Positions 1-12,615 of a stretch of 12,615 nucleotides of DNA are shown one piece after another. The DNA is from a virus (Duplodnaviria; Heunggongvirae; Uroviricota; Caudoviricetes). The notes beneath the pieces are model-generated. The model worked only from the letters and a program-made list of their open reading frames with translations. It was not told the origin of the DNA and made no database searches. The position numbers were made by a program, and so were the translations under genes. Each line of letters opens with the position of its first letter. Position 1 is the first letter of the stretch. The DNA lies in IMG/VR virus record IMGVR_UViG_2541047681_000005; one strand, 5' to 3'.

Positions 1-1230
1 ATGCGCAGAGCACTTAACAAACTGAGTGATACACAGCTAAGGAAAATCAACGGCACACCCGCCCAAAAAACAGCCTTTCTTAATGACGGTGGAAACCTGA
101 GCGTCAGGCATTCAACCAGCGGCCTTTTAACCTGGTATTTCACCTACAGGGCCGGAACGGGAAGGGGAGCACGACCGGAACGGATTAAGCTGGGAAATTA
201 TCCTGATCTGAGTCTGAAAGCTGCCAGGGAAAAAGCGGCACAGTGTCGCGCTTGGCTTGCTGAGGGGAAAAATCCACGTCATGAGATGAATTACACCGTA
301 CAGAAAGCGTTAAAGCCCGTAACGGTTGGCGATGCGCTTACCTACTGGCTTGAGTCTTACGTAAAGGAAAACCGCGTGGATTATGCCGCCCTGAAAAAGC
401 GCCTTAATAATCACGTAATACAGCACATTGGTGCTATGCCGCTGGATAAATGCGAGCTACGGCACTGGCTGGCCTGTTTTGACCAGGTGGCAAAGCGAAC
501 GCCTGTTACTGCCGGATTCTTGCTACAGACGTGCAAACAGGCGCTTAAGTTCTGCCGGAGGCGGCGCTATGCAATCAGCAACGTTCTTGATGATATGAGT
601 GTGGCGGACGTTGGGAAAAAACCGGATATAAGCGAGCGTGTCTTAAGCACCAAAGAACTTGGCGAATTATTGCAGGCACTGGACAAAAAAATATTTTCCC
701 CTTACTACGTCGCACTAATCCGCCTCCTGATTGTTTTCGGATGCCGGACGGTAGAACTGAGGTTATCGGAGATCAGCGAGTGGGATTTTACCGAAATGCT
801 CTGGACCGTGCCGAAAGAACACAGCAAAACGAAGGTGGCAATATTCCGGTCCATACCGGAAGCAATACTGCCGTTCGTCACGCAGCTGGTGGAGCAGAAC
901 AGGCACACGGGCTTATTGCTGGGGGAAGTGAAACAGGAAACAAGCGTGTCGCAGTACGGCAGATTAGCGCACAGGAGGCTAAAACACCCTCACTGGTCAC
1001 TGCATGACATCCGGCGCACCTTTACAACGATGCTGAACGATTTAGGCGTGGATCCTCACGTCGTGGAGCAGCTTACAGGTCATCAGATGCCAGGGATGCA
1101 ACGAGTCTATAACCATTCCCGTTATCTGGATGCGAAACGTGACGCGCTGGATATGTGGACGGAGCGGTTAGGGATACTGGCGGGAACACATGAAAACGTA
1201 ACCACATTGCCAATAGCCAGAGAAATATAA
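1..1230 (+). CDS. int: Tyrosine site-specific integrase, P4-type
   Basis: 409-aa ORF starting at window base 1. N-terminal arm-binding-like region (LNDGGNLSV...WYFTYR...LGNYPDLSLKAARE) and C-terminal catalytic region with HDIRRT (H-x-x-R) and a terminal VYNHSRY tyrosine motif. Upstream RBS not visible because the window starts at the ATG. Confidence 0.9.
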   Translation: MRRALNKLSDTQLRKINGTPAQKTAFLNDGGNLSVRHSTSGLLTWYFTYRAGTGRGARPERIKLGNYPDLSLKAAREKAAQCRAWLAEGKNPRHEMNYTVQKALKPVTVGDALTYWLESYVKENRVDYAALKKRLNNHVIQHIGAMPLDKCELRHWLACFDQVAKRTPVTAGFLLQTCKQALKFCRRRRYAISNVLDDMSVADVGKKPDISERVLSTKELGELLQALDKKIFSPYYVALIRLLIVFGCRTVELRLSEISEWDFTEMLWTVPKEHSKTKVAIFRSIPEAILPFVTQLVEQNRHTGLLLGEVKQETSVSQYGRLAHRRLKHPHWSLHDIRRTFTTMLNDLGVDPHVVEQLTGHQMPGMQRVYNHSRYLDAKRDALDMWTERLGILAGTHENVTTLPIAREI

Positions 1231-1257
1231 TTTTTTTTGCGATTTTTCAGGATGCGG

Positions 1258-1317
1258 ACAACGTGAAACAACGAGACACAACGACGAACAACAAGGAACA
1301 AAATGGAACAACGGGTT
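1258..1317. repeat. Six phased 10-bp direct repeats (ACAACGnnnn) just downstream of int
   Basis: ACAAC(G/A) begins at 1258, 1268, 1278, 1288, 1298 and 1308, an exact 10-bp period. A second CA-rich tract with CACAA/CCCAA repeats lies at 1511..1565, just upstream of alpA. Confidence 0.6.
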
Positions 1318-1595
1318 AAAAATCAGCCATCGTAATAACCATTTGATTTTTATAGGTGTACTGTTTTTTTATACACTGGCGAATCACTCTTAAAAATATG
1401 TAAAAAAGGCGTAAAAGTAAAATTTTATGCCTTTGCATCATAATGAATTAAAAGAGTTTTTATTCTCATTCCCCCTGCTTCTGTAAAACGACCGCCGCCA
1501 GTGTTTGCCATTCCACAAACACCCTGACACAATCCGACACAACCCAACCCAATAATCCACCCAATGACTCTTTAAGAAACAACAAAGGGGGAATT

Positions 1596-1784
1596 GTGTT
1601 AAGCACAGATCGCTTTATACGTGAAAAAGAATGTCAGCAACTTACAGGCCTGAGCCGCTCATGTCGGTACCGCCTGGAAAAAGCCGGACAATTCCCATCA
1701 CGGCGTAAGCTGGGCGGTCGTTCCGTTGGCTGGTCTTTATCCGAAGTTCTGGCATGGAAGGACAGCTGCGAGGCAGTTCACTAA
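1596..1784 (+). CDS. alpA: AlpA-family transcriptional regulator (excisionase-like winged-helix protein)
   Basis: 62-aa ORF with GTG start at 1596 preceded by RBS AAAGGGGGAA. Sequence (FIREKECQQLTGLSRSCRYRLEKAGQFPSRRKLGGRSVGWSLSEVLAWK) matches the AlpA/prophage CP4-57 regulatory protein pattern. Position directly after a P4-type int is typical. Confidence 0.85.
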   Translation: MLSTDRFIREKECQQLTGLSRSCRYRLEKAGQFPSRRKLGGRSVGWSLSEVLAWKDSCEAVH

Positions 1785-1836
1785 TCAGGCTGGCGGCACA
1801 CAGCCGCCACCCATCCACTAATACAGAGATCTAACC

Positions 1837-2196
1837 ATGAATACTGGATATTCTCCCGAACAAGGGCGGGGCTTCGTTCGTCCTGAAAAACAGAATCTGC
1901 AAAATTTTGCCGAAATTATTCCGGTTATTTCCGGCCTTACTGGCGGGAGTGAAACCAATATTGTTAACGCCAGAGCGTTGCAGATGTTTGATGATAAAAA
2001 GGGAGTAAATTTAACTTACACCCCTGACGGCAATCAGAATATGAGCATTATCTCTGAGTCAGGTTTCTACAAACTAATAAAAACAAAAAGCGCCCCGTTG
2101 CCGGAGCGCCTTTGTGAACAATTAACCTACTGCGCAAAAAATGAATCTGAGCAGTGGGATTATATCAACCATGTGGAGAAGCGCCACAATTGCCGA
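1837..2196 (+). pseudogene. Possible decayed Bro-N/antirepressor-like remnant (N-terminal part of a 428-aa composite ORF)
   Basis: The first ~115 aa (DGNQNMSIISESGFYKLIKTKSAPLPERL) weakly resemble the Bro-N/KilA-N motif (ESGLYSLI...). The remainder of ORF 1837..3123 is Cys/Arg/Ser-rich and low in complexity, crosses a divergent promoter region and overlaps a better-supported minus-strand gene, so the long ORF is not one real protein. Confidence 0.25.
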
Positions 2197-2543
2197 ATAA
2201 CGGGCAAAACAAAGGCCACCCGCTACGGTGGCCCCTCGACACAAGCTACACGTTATCCCCAACGCATGAGCATTGCCAACAATGCCACATTTGCGGCTGG
2301 TGGGCAATGCAATCAGTCTGGTTCAGTTCGTTGCCATACCTGCAATGAGCGCTTTTCCCTGTACTCTTTAAGGAATTGCTCAAGGGCAAAAGCACATGGC
2401 GCGAATCTTTCTGATTCATGCTCTATCTTTCTGCGCCGTCTTTTCCGTGCCGGTGATAATGTTTTGGTCAATTCTTTATCGGTCATTGTGTTGTCCTGCA
2501 TAGCAATGCGCCGTAGTTACTCACACCACGGCGCTGGTGATGG

Positions 2544-2723
2544 TTACTCCTGCTCTTTGGCCTTGCGGCGCTGGCGGCGTTTGATTTCGCCGCGCATGGC
2601 TGCGTTTATAAACTGTCCCGTGCTTTCGCCTTCTTCTTTCACGTTCTCCATGCCTTCAATAATTTCATGGGCAATACGTGCAGTTACAGATTGTGATTTT
2701 GCATTCTTTGGACCCGTTGCCAT
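2544..2723 (-). CDS. Hypothetical small basic protein (59 aa), divergently transcribed from the left operon
   Basis: Internal ATG at 2721..2723 (complement) preceded by RBS GAGGGG with 6-nt spacing; product MATGPKNAKSQ...EIKRRQRRKAKEQE. Candidate -35/-10 (TTCAAA/TATATT) on the minus strand, overlapped by operator-like repeats. Family not recognised. Confidence 0.45.
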   Translation of the reverse strand: MATGPKNAKSQSVTARIAHEIIEGMENVKEEGESTGQFINAAMRGEIKRRQRRKAKEQE

Positions 2724-2744
2724 GTTTAACCCCTCATGTTTTTG

Positions 2745-2826
2745 GTGTAAGACAATATACACGAAAAAAAAATATTTTGAAGGGTTGACGTGTAAGACAC
2801 CATTGTTTTACATTGTGTCTTACACC
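2745..2826. promoter_or_regulatory. Divergent promoter region with three copies of an 11-bp operator-like motif GTGTAAGACAC
   Basis: Motif at 2745..2755 and 2790..2800 (direct) and 2815..2825 (inverted). Candidate + strand promoter -35 TTGACG (2785..2790) and -10 TTACAT (2808..2813), 17-bp spacer; one operator copy sits in the spacer and the inverted copy at the predicted +1. Candidate minus-strand promoter overlaps the first copy. Confidence 0.55.
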
Positions 2827-2922
2827 TTATTGATGAAAGGCACAGAAACGACGAAACCCCGCACTGTAGGAGCAGTAACGGGGCTTCTAACCACCAACGA
2901 TAGCAACAGTATCGAGGTAGCT

Positions 2923-3123
2923 ATGAGAAATCATACCACACACCCGAAAGGGCGGGACTCGCACAACCTGAATAAATACATCTGGCGTTTTATCGCCCTG
3001 AGCACGGCACAACCGCGCGTGATTACCATTGAGGCCACCAGCGAACAGGAAGCACGCCAGCAATCTCCGGCTGGCTGCGTGATGGTATTTGCTGCCCGTA
3101 TTCGTCAGGGGGTAGGCTTATGA
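2923..3123 (+). CDS. Small protein (66 aa), first gene of the left operon; possibly Icd-like, otherwise hypothetical
   Basis: ATG at 2923 with RBS GAGGT upstream; product MRNHTTHPKGRDSHNLNKYIWRFIALSTAQPRVITIEATSEQEARQQ.... Its stop overlaps the next ATG (ATGA). The Icd-like assignment is a recollection of P4-like prophage annotations and is unverified. Confidence 0.45.
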   Translation: MRNHTTHPKGRDSHNLNKYIWRFIALSTAQPRVITIEATSEQEARQQSPAGCVMVFAARIRQGVGL

Positions 3124-3350
3124 GCCAGGAAATCACACTACAACAGGCAGCAGAACGCGCCCACCAAATCGAAGTTATTTGCGCACTGGCAGAGGATTAC
3201 CCTAGCATGATGACCGACAGCGAATCAGGGGCAATCATCGGCTTACTTAAACGCCTTAGCGGTGAGGTCTGCGTATTCCTGAGCGATGAACAGGAAAGAA
3301 GAACGCTTATTTCTAACGAAAAAAAATGCGGAGGGGTACATGTGCAATAA
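3120..3350 (+). CDS. Hypothetical protein (76 aa)
   Basis: ATG at 3120 overlapping the upstream stop (ATGA), RBS AGGGGG upstream; acidic product. No family recognised. Confidence 0.5.
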   Translation: MSQEITLQQAAERAHQIEVICALAEDYPSMMTDSESGAIIGLLKRLSGEVCVFLSDEQERRTLISNEKKCGGVHVQ

Positions 3351-3570
3351 AACCACACCGGACGCAGCAGAAGAAGCAATGCAAATACTGATACGTGCGC
3401 TCGTTGATGTTACCCACATGGTGGAGATTATGGAGAGAAAATCACAGTCGGAGCACGACAAAAGAAAACTTAAAACAATAAAAATAATTGCCAAAAACTC
3501 GCTGATAAAAGTTACAGACATCCTTAATGAGGACATTAAAAGAATAAGGGAGAAAATTTGTGATGCATAA
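3340..3570 (+). CDS. Hypothetical protein (76 aa)
   Basis: ATG at 3340 preceded by RBS GGAGGGG, overlapping the previous gene by 11 nt. The longer six-frame ORF 3286..3570 probably starts at this internal ATG. No family recognised. Confidence 0.5.
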   Translation: MCNKTTPDAAEEAMQILIRALVDVTHMVEIMERKSQSEHDKRKLKTIKIIAKNSLIKVTDILNEDIKRIREKICDA

Positions 3571-3790
3571 AATCCCTTTTGAAGTATTAATCCACTCTGA
3601 AAACGCATTAATTAAAGCACGCGAAATGAATGCGTTGTTAATTAAATTAATTGAAGTGCCGGAAGGTGGCGAAGATCATTCATCATTAATGTTTGCCGCT
3701 GTTCAGACATTATTGACACCTGTTATTGATGAACTCAATAAGGCTATGGCAATTCACGAGAATAATAAAGCGCCCCACACCGGAGAATAA
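3563..3790 (+). CDS. Hypothetical protein (75 aa)
   Basis: ATG at 3563 (GTG at 3560 also possible) with RBS AAGGGAG upstream; overlaps the previous gene by 8 nt. No family recognised. Confidence 0.5.
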   Translation: MHKIPFEVLIHSENALIKAREMNALLIKLIEVPEGGEDHSSLMFAAVQTLLTPVIDELNKAMAIHENNKAPHTGE

Positions 3791-3795
3791 AAATA

Positions 3796-4095
3796 ATGAA
3801 ACTTAAATATTCTGGCTTAACTGCCAGTGGCAAAACTCGCACTAAATTCATGCGCGGTGATATTTACCGCGACCAGTACGGCGGCACGGTAATGATTAAG
3901 GGCGTGGAGGAACGGCGCGTAACCTACCGTCGTGAAGGCTACGAATATGATTGCGTGATGCCTGTTTATCAGTTCGATCGTGATTTTTCTCTGGTGCAGG
4001 CCGTACCGCGTAACGTGCCCACCAGCAGGGAGAAAGCACGCGCCAATATTCAGGAAATAAAAAAGATGCTTAACGTATTCAGGGGTAAGAAATGA
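3796..4095 (+). CDS. Hypothetical protein (99 aa)
   Basis: ATG at 3796 with RBS GGAGA 9 nt upstream; stop overlaps the primase start (ATGA). No family recognised. Confidence 0.55.
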   Translation: MKLKYSGLTASGKTRTKFMRGDIYRDQYGGTVMIKGVEERRVTYRREGYEYDCVMPVYQFDRDFSLVQAVPRNVPTSREKARANIQEIKKMLNVFRGKK

Positions 4096-5846: not shown

Positions 5847-5860
5847 TTTTTTGTAATTGC

Positions 5861-6086
5861 TGTCTACCCTGTCTACCTGAGTAAAGAAAAATACATTTAA
5901 TTCAGTGCATTAAGTTAGGTAGACAGCCTTTTTTTACTGTCTACCCACTATCTACCCTCTCTACCTGATTTTACCTGAATCAGACAGGGAGGTAGACACG
6001 GGGTAGATAGTGGATAAAAGCACTCTACCCCGCTGAAAGCCGCGCCATTACTGGCATGAGGGCCACTAAGGTAGATAAGGTAGACA
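5861..6086. repeat. Iteron cluster, putative replication origin
   Basis: About 11 copies of the core TCTACC / GGTAGA in both orientations (TGTCTACC at 5861, 5870, 5938; ATCTACCC 5950; CTCTACC 5959 and 6023; GGTAGACA 5918, 5991, 6079; GGTAGATA 6002, 6070), with an AT-rich stretch at 5880..5915. Directly downstream of the primase stop. Confidence 0.7.
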
Positions 6087-6134
6087 AGGGGAGGCACAAC
6101 TCAAAACTTTTTAAACGAGGGGGTAAAAATAAAT

Positions 6135-6848: not shown

Positions 6849-6870
6849 GCCGGAGCAATCCGGCTTTTTT
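6849..6870 (+). terminator. Rho-independent terminator after the SSB-like gene
   Basis: Hairpin GCCGGA-GCAA-TCCGGC followed by six T (6865..6870). Confidence 0.7.
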
Positions 6871-6908
6871 ACGGGTCCTCCTGGCGGGGTGGGCCTGAAC
6901 ACGGGGCG
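6871..6908 (+). other. Degenerate cos-like sequence (pseudo-cos)
   Basis: ACGGGTCCTCCTGGCGGGGTGGGCCTGAACACGGGGCGGGAAGCGCGG resembles the cosQ/cosN segment at 9313..9360 (ACGGGTCCTTTCCGG...ACGGGGCGGCGACCTCGCGG), and is preceded by the same terminator hairpin, but lacks the intact GGGCGGCGACCT core. Confidence 0.45.
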
Positions 6909-7044
6909 GGAAGCGCGGAAAAAAGCGCATTTTTGTGATTTTATCGTCATCATCATCATGAGCGTAATTTATTGTTTTTAATTGTTTTGATGCAAAAAAG
7001 ATGATGGTTGTGGTTAATTTTCGTTCGACATCTTTGCAGGCAGA

Positions 7045-9289: not shown

Positions 9290-9312
9290 GCCGGAGAAAT
9301 CCGGCTTTTTTT
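9290..9312 (+). terminator. Rho-independent terminator after the capsid operon
   Basis: Hairpin GCCGGA-GAAA-TCCGGC followed by seven T (9306..9312); near-identical to the hairpin at 6849..6870. Confidence 0.75.
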
Positions 9313-9445
9313 ACGGGTCCTTTCCGGCATATGGACCCGTTACGGGGCGGCGACCTCGCGGGTTTTCGCTATTTATGACGTTTTTCCGTGAAGGTGACAC
9401 CACCACCACTTGATTAATATTTAACCATGCGGTTAAGGTAACATT
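9313..9445 (+). other. Lambda-type cos site (cosQ-like, cosN, short cosB) upstream of the TerS-like gene
   Basis: TACGGGTCCTTTCCGG...GTTACG|GGGCGGCGACCTCGCGGGTTTTCGCTATTTATGA closely matches the lambda cohesive-end region as remembered. Predicted 12-nt cohesive end GGGCGGCGACCT at 9345..9356. One R-site-like element (CGTTTTTCCGTG, about 9381..9392) and an AT-rich stretch follow. Confidence 0.75.
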
Positions 9446-10179: not shown

Positions 10180-10461
10180 ATGACAGAAGCCGAAATACTG
10201 CGATTAATCCGCCGCGTTGCCGGAATCAGCCAGCAGCATGACGAACAGGCCACGCAGCCGGACAGCGTGACCGCTGAAAATTATGTGCGTGTTGTTGCTG
10301 AGGTGATGCGCCGTGATGGTATCCAGCTTAATGATGTTGATATGCGCGACATACGGATCCGCGTTCTGGAAATGCTGGCCTACAATCGCCGCGTTGAACT
10401 GTATCGGGAGAAAGAAAAAATAACGTACCACTGGAAGAAGCCGGAGCGGTTGCGGCGGTAA
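10180..10461 (+). CDS. Hypothetical protein (93 aa)
   Basis: ATG at 10180 with RBS GGGGGC upstream; charged product (MTEAEILRLIRRVAG...). No family recognised. Whether it belongs to the satellite or the junction region is unresolved. Confidence 0.5.
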   Translation: MTEAEILRLIRRVAGISQQHDEQATQPDSVTAENYVRVVAEVMRRDGIQLNDVDMRDIRIRVLEMLAYNRRVELYREKEKITYHWKKPERLRR

Positions 10462-11154
10462 CTGGTTGATATTTTCGAAATTCGCCAGCGGCGAACATCG
10501 GGGAAACCAGCCTAACCCGTTGATATTTTCGGAAACCTCAATTTGAGGAAGTCGGCGCGGTAACTCGCTGAACTTAAAGCAAAGCGCAAAATTGCGCTTG
10601 CTGAATAATCATTATGATTACGCAGATGATTAAGGAATGACCGAAGGCGGAAATTCGCCTGTGGTTAATGGGGGAGTTGCAGATCTGCAACTCGACCATG
10701 AAACTACGGAAACTACCCGTAGTTTGGGTAGTAAGAGTAACACCCAGATTTTGGGGCTTACTCGTGATACCCAAATTTGGGGTATCGGTGGCAACCATAA
10801 CGACTTTCGTTACGGTTGATGCTTTTACCCCATTGGGGGAAAGGTATTACGATAATCATAACACCTACCGAACAGGTAAAGCCCACCAGCCTGATTAACG
10901 TTTAACCGGAAAAAAATTCCGGTAGGTGGGGATCCCCATATAGACATTAACGCCCCTCATGAATTGGTGCGCTTCCCCCTGGAAAGATGATCCGCCTGTA
11001 TATTTCTTGTGTCTATTTGTTCCACGTTGTTTCATACGGTGCACCGAACGGTGTAGTTAATGGTGTAGTCAATTTGCGATTTTTGGCACTTTTTCAGTGT
11101 AGATTATTTAATTAAATCAATGGTTTGTCTTGATATAGTGATAAAAGGACATAT
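10462..11154. other. Palindrome-dense non-coding tract between the last satellite ORF and phoQ (possible attR region or structured RNA)
   Basis: No convincing ORF. Direct repeat TAAC-nGTTGATATTTTCG-AAA at about 10459 and 10513. Hairpin-forming palindromes roughly every 30 bp, e.g. AAGCGCAAAATTGCGCTT, GTTGCAGATCTGCAAC, GATACCCAAATTTGGGGTATC, CCGGAAAAAAATTCCGG, TGGGGATCCCCA, CGGTGCACCG. Tandem GGTGTAGT(T/C)AAT at 11050..11073. Confidence 0.4.
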
Positions 11155-12615
11155 TTATTCATCTTTCGGCGCAGAATGCTGGCGACCAAAAATCACTTCC
11201 ATCCGCGCACCGCCCAGCATGCTCTCTCCGGCGACGATTTTACCCTCATATTGCTCGGTGATTTCGCGGGCTACCGCCAGCCCCACACCTTGCCCAGGGC
11301 GTAAAGTATCAACCCGTTGACCACGGTCGAAAATGACCTCTCGCTTGCTTAATGGAATACCGGGGCCATCATCCTCGACCACAATATAGAGATGCTCGTC
11401 GGTTTGCCTTGCAGAAATTTCGACAAACTCGAGGCAATATTTACAGGCGTTATCCAGCACGTTGCCCATCACTTCGACAAAATCATTCTGCTCACCAACA
11501 AAGCTGATTTCTGGCGAGATATCGAGAGAGATATTGACCCCTTTGCGTTGATACACTTTGTTCAGCGCCGAGGTGAGATTGTCCAACAGTGGCGCGACCG
11601 GATGCAGCTCGCGGCTAAGCAATGTCCCGCCGCGCATACTGGCACGATGCAGGTAGTAGCCAATTTGCTGTGAAATGCGGCTGATTTGCTCCAGCATTAC
11701 CGGCTCAGCATCACTGACGCTCATCTTCTCACTACGCAGAGAACGCAGCGTACTTTGCAGCACCGCCAGTGGCGTTTTCAGACTATGGGTCAGGTCGGTG
11801 AGCGTTGTACGATATTTGTCGTAACGTTCGCGTTCACTTTTTAACAGTCGGTTCAGGTTTCGTACCAGACTGGTCAGTTCTCGCGTTGTGGCTGGATTGA
11901 GCAATTCACGGTTATGTTCTTCCAGTTCGCGGACTTCTTTTGCCAGGGCTTCGATGGGGCGTAAACTCCACCAGGCGGCGACCCACAGCAGCGGGATCAC
12001 TAACAGCAGATTGGCTGAGAGCACATAGATAAACCAGCTCCAGACCATATAGGAACTTTTTAGCTCCACCGGAATGGTATCCACCACCACAATGGTTAAC
12101 TTTGGCATCCGCGATGTTGCCGGGTAGACGTTTACCGCCACCGAGTGGGTCATCTCCGCGTCGTCATCATCTTCCCGCACTTCCTGCAACTGTTGCTGTA
12201 TCGAATGATCTCCACTCAGCAAGAGGCTGGTATCGTTAACATCCGCTTCAATTTCATGAAAACCATTCGATTTCAGCCAGTCAGGCTGGATCATCTTCAT
12301 CAGCCAGGGCACGTCACGTTGCGCCCATAAAAGCTGCCCGTTCTCATCATAAATTAGTGTCATCGTGGGGCTTTGCTTGTCGATATTTTCGGGTAACTCG
12401 ACATGCAACTTATTGTTTTCCCACTTCGCAAGGGTATAGAACAGATTGCTCTCGCCACGTAACAGCCGAAACGTGGTTTTATCGAAACTGACGCTATAAC
12501 CGATCAGCGCAACCATTCCGTAGGCAAGCGAAAGCACCAATACTACTGCTGCCGTTGCTAACAGAAAACGTACCCGCAGCGAGAGCGGGAAAAAAAGATG
12601 CAGTAATTTTTTCAT
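11155..12615 (-). CDS. phoQ: Sensor histidine kinase PhoQ (PhoP/PhoQ two-component system), complete
   Basis: 486-aa minus-strand ORF whose ATG is the last codon of the window. Two transmembrane segments, periplasmic acidic cluster EDDDDAE, H-box [15 protein letters not shown] and G-box DDGPGIP; reads as full-length Escherichia/Shigella-type PhoQ. Confidence 0.97.

Follow-up and report, generated by a model that had tools for sequence, protein, structure and literature searches.

The window, the whole 12,615-nucleotide stretch of DNA analysed here, begins at the int ATG and ends in the 3' end of phoQ; the attL arm therefore lies outside it. Over positions 1-4000 it is 96.7% identical to the CFT073 genome from 1377930 onward, a match that corresponds to EcCICFT073, the prototype Gram-negative phage-inducible chromosomal island (PICI), located between roxA and phoQ. 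The open reading frames encode a P4-type integrase, a 62-aa AlpA-family protein, a D5-type primase followed by iterons, an SSB and a lambda-E-type capsid protein. Strain 2017C-4173W12 has an identical (100%) copy of the segment linking the int 3' end and alpA (query 1100-1900), and this segment was found at a coverage of at least 80% in 878 out of 5426 complete E. coli genomes (~16%). The islands occupy at least four chromosomal sites (roxA/phoQ, abgR, ilvL/yifB and tqsA), vary in their replication and packaging modules, and include full capsid-forming PICIs (cf-PICIs).

Several other parts of the window are recognizable. A lambda-type cosN (GGGCGGCGACCT, then CGCGGGTTTTCGCTATTTATGA) is present at 9345-9356 within a segment (9308-9388) that matches lambdoid phages at ~88%, consistent with the cos-packaging hijack described for EcCICFT073. 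Dense iterons of the type (C)TGTCTACC / GGTAGA, in both orientations, lie at 5860-6090 directly 3' of the D5-type primase gene and probably mark the island ori. A 170-bp non-coding stretch at 6866-7035 is ~90% identical to unannotated DNA of Stx1/Stx2-converting phages. This study concerns the left end, where the following features were found:

1-1230, plus strand: int, encoding a P4-type tyrosine integrase of 409 aa with an N-terminal arm-binding domain (Pfam Arm-DNA-bind_3 9e-19, Phage_integrase 7e-16)
1258-1317, minus strand: distal array of six 10-bp units, a candidate AlpA operator array
1336-1348, minus strand: IHF consensus AATCAAATGGTTA (WATCARNNNNTTR), located by pattern search 18 bp past the array
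1405-1434, plus strand: hairpin AAAGGCGTAAAA-loop-TTTTATGCCTTT followed by TTTGCAT, the probable int terminator
1505-1533, plus strand: candidate alpA promoter TTGCCA-17-CACAAT with a TG upstream of the -10, the best sigma-70 match in the spacer
1526-1543, minus strand: two proximal motif-like units 10 bp apart, TTGTGTCG and TTGTGTCA, overlapping the -10 and +1
1596-1784, plus strand: alpA, encoding a 62-aa winged-helix protein of the regulator/excisionase family (Pfam Phage_AlpA, PF05930, 3e-18)

The int stop codon (TAA) occupies 1228-1230, and the array begins at 1258. Its units start at 1258, 1268, 1278, 1288, 1298 and 1308, at a spacing of exactly 10 bp, and read ACAACGTGAA ACAACGAGAC ACAACGACGA ACAACAAGGA ACAAAATGGA ACAACGGGTT on the plus strand. 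On the minus strand they read TTGTTCCATT TTGTTCCTTG TTGTTCGTCG TTGTGTCTCG TTGTTTCACG TTGTCCGCAT, with the consensus TTGTTYCACG. Tandem Repeats Finder reports a period of 10 at 1258-1311. The null model consisted of 1000 dinucleotide-preserving shuffles of the whole 12.6-kb window, with any 4-mer scored. The longest period-10 run of a 4-mer was two in 795 shuffles, three in 203 and four in 2, and a run of six occurred in none; in the real window, periods 7 to 14 other than 10 gave runs of at most three. The array is thus real and a chance pattern is excluded, confirming the original prediction of six repeats at exact 10-bp spacing after int. The motif given there was ACAACG; ACAA recurs in 6/6 units at exactly 10 bp, and ACAAC or ACAACG in 4-5 of the six. 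The internal location that had been noted also holds, as the array is about 1.3-1.4 kb from the attL core, with the whole int gene in between, and 9.8 kb from the attR core. Beyond this internal copy, the same motif is present at both element ends, at 11007-11036 and just upstream of position 1. The 428-aa ORF that follows alpA contains, on the plus strand at 2803-2822, a further pair of motif-like units at 10-bp spacing (TTGTTTTACA TTGTGTCTTA); the pair is not conserved in CFT073 and probably arose by chance.

Conservation was analysed in alignments, first of 12 E. coli islands, then of int-alpA spacers in 56 distinct versions taken from E. coli genomes and IMG/VR. The 10-bp phase is kept across the 56 relatives. 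In units 3-6 the AACAA cores are 98-100% conserved and the intervening spacer positions (5 bp) 42-89%, a periodic pattern indicating selection on a repeated recognition element. The array of one clade has five units, not six. In one IMG/VR relative (L061), a 10-bp unit (GCAACAATGA) is exactly duplicated, resulting in six units versus five; this is the sole change of unit number within a clade, it amounts to exactly one helical turn, and a gain of 10 bp rules out coding constraint from the overlapping mechanical ORFs. AlpA relatives of at least 90% identity were found at 68 loci on IMG/VR viral contigs; the distance to the start of the contig or of int is 1.58-1.61 kb in every case, and the array is kept wherever the contig reaches that far. 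Since this holds for all 68 loci (int not typed), they do not separate AlpA from Int. Searches with the AlpA protein gave 3 loci in genome contigs and 19 by homologous-protein search. The association between array variant and alpA allele carries no weight, since the two are physically adjacent. More distant AlpA-bearing PICIs (AlpA 64-70% identical) are without the internal array and have an ORF in its place, indicating that the array is not essential to AlpA function generally. No comparable array was found in CP4-57 of K-12, the source of the original AlpA. The array is a clade-specific addition and probably an inverted copy of an arm array.

In five of the distant PICIs (L089, L094, L098, L100 and L103), the ORF between int and alpA is 260-300 aa long and a hairpin lies immediately 5' of the alpA ATG. 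In two of them (L094 and L098), alpA is also preceded by two palindromes of the AGTGATATCACT type, pointing to a different mode of control, of the repressor type.

The motif recurs at the right end of the window, where the attR side of the element contains:

11007-11036, plus strand: P-arm (attR side) array of three units at 10 bp, TTGTGTCTAT TTGTTCCACG TTGTTTCATA, with the motif of the internal array
11050-11073, plus strand: doubled 12-mer GGTGTAGTTAAT GGTGTAGTCAAT, probable Int arm-type sites in a P4-like layout
11115-11127, plus strand: IHF consensus AATCAATGGTTTG, located by pattern search between the doubled motif and the core
11147-11156, no strand assigned: attL/attR identity block (crossover region) GGACATATTT, overlapping the phoQ stop codon

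The block GGACATATTT is present once per island end in CFT073 (L013 9820-9829 and 21272-21281), and from the attR crossover block it is ~115 bp inward to the P-arm array. The three 8-mers of that array, TTGTGTCT, TTGTTCCA and TTGTTTCA, all occur again in the internal array and almost nowhere else, each having an expectation of about 0.4 per window. A motif-cluster test at a low threshold of 6 bits was only weakly significant (17 of 500), and the exact sharing of 8-mers is the stronger statistic. On the P' arm of CFT073 and its relatives, the units TTGTTCCAGC TTGTTTCACG TTGTAGCCCT TTGTGCAACG (L013 9912-9951) are found within the 90 bp before int, with a second, looser GTTTCA/GTTCA array closer to the core. 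The internal array is inverted relative to the arm arrays, which are separated from the doubled 12-mer by 13 bp on the P arm and 3 bp on the P' arm.

The doubled 12-mer (GGTGTAGTTAAT GGTGTAGTYAAT; GGTGTAGTnAnT) is present on both arms, at about -91 and +141 from the core, the P' copy being at L013 9955-9978. The int homologues of CFT073 and relatives are annotated as integrase, and among the islands two Int N-terminal types occur, MSRALNKLSDTQLRKINGTPAQK... and VSRAMNKLSDTLLRKLHGKPAEK.... The MSRALNKLSDTQLRKINGTPAQK type always accompanies 12-mers ending in TAAT/CAAT, and the VSRAMNKLSDTLLRKLHGKPAEK type always those ending in CACT/CATT/TACT. This co-variation between the last four bases and the Int N-terminal type was seen at 13 loci on the P' arm and in 6 islands on the P arm, which is more than 10 kb distant, and two islands that share the tqsA site differ in their Int N-terminus and, on each arm, in their 12-mer variant. 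Co-variation at both arms suggests that the doubled 12-mers are Int arm-type sites, probably forming four half-sites for a tetramer. The TTGT arrays beside the 12-mers, the P-arm array among them, are identical in all six islands, whichever Int type is present, and each Int N-terminal type is found with each form of the internal array, so that all four combinations are represented. Lacking co-variation with Int, the TTGT arrays would serve another factor. In the distant PICIs the doubled motif has wholly changed together with Int (TGTGTGGTCAGT, GTGTATCACTCG, GGTGCAGTCAG, TGGTCCAAA), and 10-bp-phased YGTTY arrays persist beside it, as does the helix-wing (DNA-binding) region of AlpA. One locus (L091) has an unrelated Int N-terminus and doubled motif, yet keeps CTGTTTC repeats. 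Int arm-type sites would be expected within about 150 bp of the crossover core, a range that does not include the internal array.

AlpA is the sole small DNA-binding protein conserved across all these islands. Its sequence matches PDB 8C3T (GIsul2 excisionase; E 2.6e-6), and its AF2 model (pLDDT 86.5) has 8C3T as the best fold match (TM 0.83), followed by RdfS, TorI, Pukovnik Xis and BldC. These proteins bind direct repeats one turn apart in a head-to-tail manner (PMC7498355, PMC11963761), and RDFs generally bind tandem direct repeats one turn apart, longer arrays being bound more tightly (PMC7498355). The island combines what is expected of an RDF operator array, namely a small wHTH protein of an RDF family, direct repeats at one helical turn, and the same motif in the att arms beside the Int arm-type sites. 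An analogy with the AlpA antiterminator of P. aeruginosa was considered and rejected, as that protein is 21Q-like and shares the name only (PMC9371919). A Q-like loading site goes with a 21Q-like multi-helix fold with residues beyond 140, one ABE between the -35 and -10, and a -10-like pause element (PMC9371919); the locus does not have this constitution, and AlpA here is a 62-aa wHTH protein.

Published data link AlpA to the DNA fragment in question. In EcCICFT073, over-expression of AlpA leads to int-dependent excision of the island (Fillol-Salom et al. 2018, PMC6092414), and AlpA activates its own promoter (PMC6092414). In the reporter test, performed in DH5alpha with pBAD-alpA only and no Int, the lacZ fusion was activated (PMC6092414), and the primers of that study place the reporter at the window-equivalent 1198-1653, array included. 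Activation of this fragment by AlpA alone suggests an AlpA target within it, and its only strong motif cluster is the array. The helpers lambda and phi80 induce alpA, as measured on a reporter that includes the array, and a Pint fusion carrying the P' arm arrays did not respond to AlpA (PMC6092414). In the literature searched, no AlpA binding site in a PICI is mapped, PMC6092414 mapping none, and neither the internal nor the arm arrays are mentioned; searches for AlpA EMSA data in PICIs and for the 8C3T structure paper returned nothing relevant.

The spacer between the array and alpA contains further conserved elements. IHF consensus matches number six in the window versus 1.06 expected. At 1336-1348 the consensus positions are 96-100% conserved except the R position (T1343, 73%), where the alternative C gives AATCAG and still satisfies WATCAR; for the N4 positions, conservation is 55-69%. 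A minus-strand IHF consensus also occurs within each copy of the direct repeat GGTTGATATTTTCG(G)AAA, of which the non-coding right end of the island has two (10459-10525). In variants of the 1405-1434 hairpin, pairing is preserved through G.U on the plus strand only, the plus-strand RNA is usually 3-9 kcal/mol more stable than that of the minus strand, and L003 and L004 carry compensatory A-T to G-C changes. The hairpin is probably the Rho-independent terminator of int, insulating alpA from int transcription, and a plus-strand terminator at this position would place the array within the int 3'UTR. A minus-strand terminator or small RNA was rejected because the G.U pairs are kept on the plus strand only.

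No credible promoter was found next to the array on either strand with a prediction tool and a looser script, PalpA being the only conserved one, and the attL arm gave no promoter prediction upstream of the P' array. A second clade has TTGCCA-17-AACAAT, keeping the hexamers and the 17-bp spacing of the candidate alpA promoter despite a 10-bp indel. With a position weight matrix built from arm units only, the two proximal units score 10.9 and 7.6 bits, and in the second clade TTGTGTCG/TTGTTCCC are found at the same place, again as two units 10 bp apart over the -10 (AACAATACGACACAAT). A second CA-rich repeat tract had been described at 1511-1565, just upstream of alpA. Two units of it, GACACAAT (1526) and GACACAAC (1536), are indeed 10 bp apart, and the tract is otherwise only partly a repeat tract, with a weaker unit at ~1511 and another at 1575. 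Its units overlap the predicted alpA promoter, and conservation is lower here than in the distal array. Between the last distal unit and the -35, 53 of the 56 spacers have 195-199 bp; two have 207 bp (+11), and L059 has 225 bp owing to a mutated unit that truncates the detected run. The spacer has a GC content of 37.5% versus 48.9%.

The periodic cores, the motif shared with the att arms, the excisionase fold and the AlpA-responsive fragment containing the array best support cooperative binding of a small AlpA/Xis-like protein on one DNA face, one of the two binders originally put forward. The other, the integrase arm domain, is unlikely, because the doubled 12-mer, which has the P4 arm-repeat architecture, co-varies with Int and the TTGTT arrays do not. 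AlpA is quite probably the protein that binds the arrays, and we hold it somewhat more probable than the contrary that the internal array is an RDF (excisionase-type) operator array for AlpA, its autoregulatory role included.

The alternatives differ in what would bind the array and at which level. The binder may be a host nucleoid protein or a helper product such as a helper excisionase or alpA inducer, which would make the array the entry point of the helper signal. The induction of alpA by lambda and phi80 on an array-containing reporter, the cross-talk between PICI AlpA and helper Xis excisionase reported for EcCIMP1, and the AT-rich spacer, which fits H-NS-type silencing, are in line with such a binder. 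It is nevertheless unlikely, as the motif is present in both att arms beside the Int sites, where an element-encoded RDF is expected, and AlpA alone is enough to activate the fragment in DH5alpha. Cross-recognition by lambda Xis was rejected, its X1/X2 sites scoring <7 bits with the island motif matrix. Int itself might use the units as arm-type sites of an extra, internal arm, for looping out or int autoregulation, given that it has an arm-binding domain, that the arrays adjoin the doubled motif in both arms, that the unit GTTGTAGCC resembles GGTGTAGTT, and that inverted arrays bracket int. We regard this as very unlikely, since the four half-sites of the doubled motif already fit an Int tetramer and the P4 layout, only the 12-mers follow the Int N-terminal type, every combination of Int type and array form exists, and the repeats of L091 persist beside an unrelated Int N-terminus.

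A role at the RNA level, in which the int 3'UTR binds an RNA chaperone or pairs with the P' arm sequence if that lies in the int 5'UTR, draws on the plus-strand terminator, by which the array would be transcribed with int, and on 14 nt of perfect complementarity between ACAACGUGAAACAA and UUGUUUCACGUUGU (L001 14823-14836). Such complementarity is automatic for inverted copies of one protein site, and the exact helical period together with the 10-bp unit gain points to DNA recognition; moreover, the P-arm copy is at the far island end with no obvious transcript, and no promoter was found upstream of the P' array. An Rfam scan of the whole window at E <= 1 gave no match. A role of this kind is therefore highly improbable. 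Least credible of all is an array without regulatory function, which would be a minisatellite produced by replication slippage or a group of origin iterons. The tandem 10-bp repeat and the unit duplication in one relative are as expected for it, but the cores are conserved and the spacers free among the 56 variants, and the motif recurs at the att arms. Iterons would be adjacent to the replicase, co-vary with it and share the repeat of the ori, whereas the true iterons here (TCTACC type), at 5860-6090, follow the primase gene, and the array does not differ between islands that have a D5-type primase, a RepA helicase or a DUF927 replicase.

For the AlpA operator array that we favour, a working model can be outlined. 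The array would present six head-to-tail sites one turn apart, to which AlpA monomers would bind cooperatively on one helix face. AlpA sites would thus exist at three places, the P arm and the P' arm, where AlpA would have its excisionase role, and the inverted internal array, which follows the int stop codon, precedes the int terminator and lies ~195 bp upstream of the alpA promoter. Having the most and best sites, the internal array would fill first. The array and IHF bending, perhaps with the proximal units, would then form a bent complex and drive positive feedback on PalpA. At higher AlpA levels the arm arrays of 3-4 sites would fill later and, with Int on the 12-mers and IHF, promote excision. 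We infer that AlpA binding is cooperative and that PalpA is activated through the array rather than the proximal units. Action at ~-230 could alternatively involve a loop to the proximal units, counter-silencing of the AT-rich spacer, or the array serving as an AlpA sink.

Several observations weigh against this model. The array is ~195 bp upstream of the -35 and past a terminator hairpin, a long distance for a simple activator, and a U-turn imposed by IHF at 1342 would not suffice to bring it to the promoter. The Pint fusion with the P' arm arrays is unaffected by AlpA, and P4 Vis and KplE1 TorI repress their own int promoters. Arrays are present on both arms, and RDFs usually bind one arm. 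In addition, the resemblance of the P' unit GTTGTAGCC to the doubled-motif core GGTGTAGTT means that Int may make some contact with the arrays. A bolder version, which we consider distinctly unlikely, would make the array and IHF the ignition point of a repressor-less satellite, at which the highest-affinity filament nucleates, a helper signal sets off an all-or-none AlpA burst, and the att arrays time excision. The helper signal could be a helper-encoded wHTH/RDF that cross-binds the array, or relief of silencing. If true, the array, as an inverted arm-array duplication replacing the int-alpA ORF, would define helper sensing in the EcCICFT073 and cf-PICI clade.

An RDF operator array that acts both at att and in regulation, as proposed here for AlpA, is of a known kind, represented by 186 Apl, P2 Cox and P4 Vis. 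The seven Apl operators at pR-pL and the attP sites of 186, and the Cox boxes of P2, are likewise bound by a small wHTH RDF (PMC7498355). They comprise 5-7 direct repeats one turn apart, with an att set and a regulatory set beside the RDF operon as in this island, and are bound as a cooperative filament, longer arrays giving higher apparent affinity (PMC7498355). The Apl and Cox arrays, however, lie between or over promoters and repress, whereas the array described here is ~195 bp upstream, behind the int terminator and accompanied by an IHF site, and AlpA activates. This island also differs in having arrays in both att arms and in its protein, which belongs to the AlpA family PF05930 and not to Cox/Apl. 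The lambda Xis sites X1-X1.5-X2 similarly hold head-to-tail wHTH monomers ~10 bp apart, which bend the att arm by Int arm and IHF/Fis sites; they differ in being confined to one arm, where there are three of them, in lacking a regulatory array and in scoring poorly with the island motif.

P4 is a satellite with a P4-type Int and annotated 12-bp tandem arm-repeat pairs on both arms, at core distances similar to those found here, and its record annotates an AlpA-family protein as excisionase and transcriptional regulator. Vis is said to bind two boxes between int and the core and to bend DNA, in work attributed to Cali et al. 2004. In P4, however, vis and int lie far apart, and beside int there is no evident phased array of six units. 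Vis represses Pint, whereas AlpA of EcCICFT073 left Pint unaffected (PMC6092414). Helper-embedded PICIs (HE-PICIs) have a doubled attP motif, tgTGTATTGCa x2, at -81 and +132, the same architecture as the doubled GGTGTAGTTAAT here, for which Int arm domains or AlpA were suggested as binders (PMC10111431). That motif differs in sequence from GGTGTAGTTAAT and was stated to be unique to HE-PICIs, and neither adjacent phased arrays nor an internal array are described there (PMC10111431).

The proposed AlpA consensus, its three loci and their separation from the Int arm sites appear to be undescribed. Gram-negative PICIs and cf-PICIs have AlpA as their master switch. The analysis provides a candidate 10-bp consensus, TTGTTYCACG, with three target loci, and sets the AlpA-type arrays apart from the Int 12-mers. 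The autoregulatory circuit, the sequence in which the sites fill and the excisive intasome thereby become directly testable, and the same information may yield design rules for engineered PICI vehicles.
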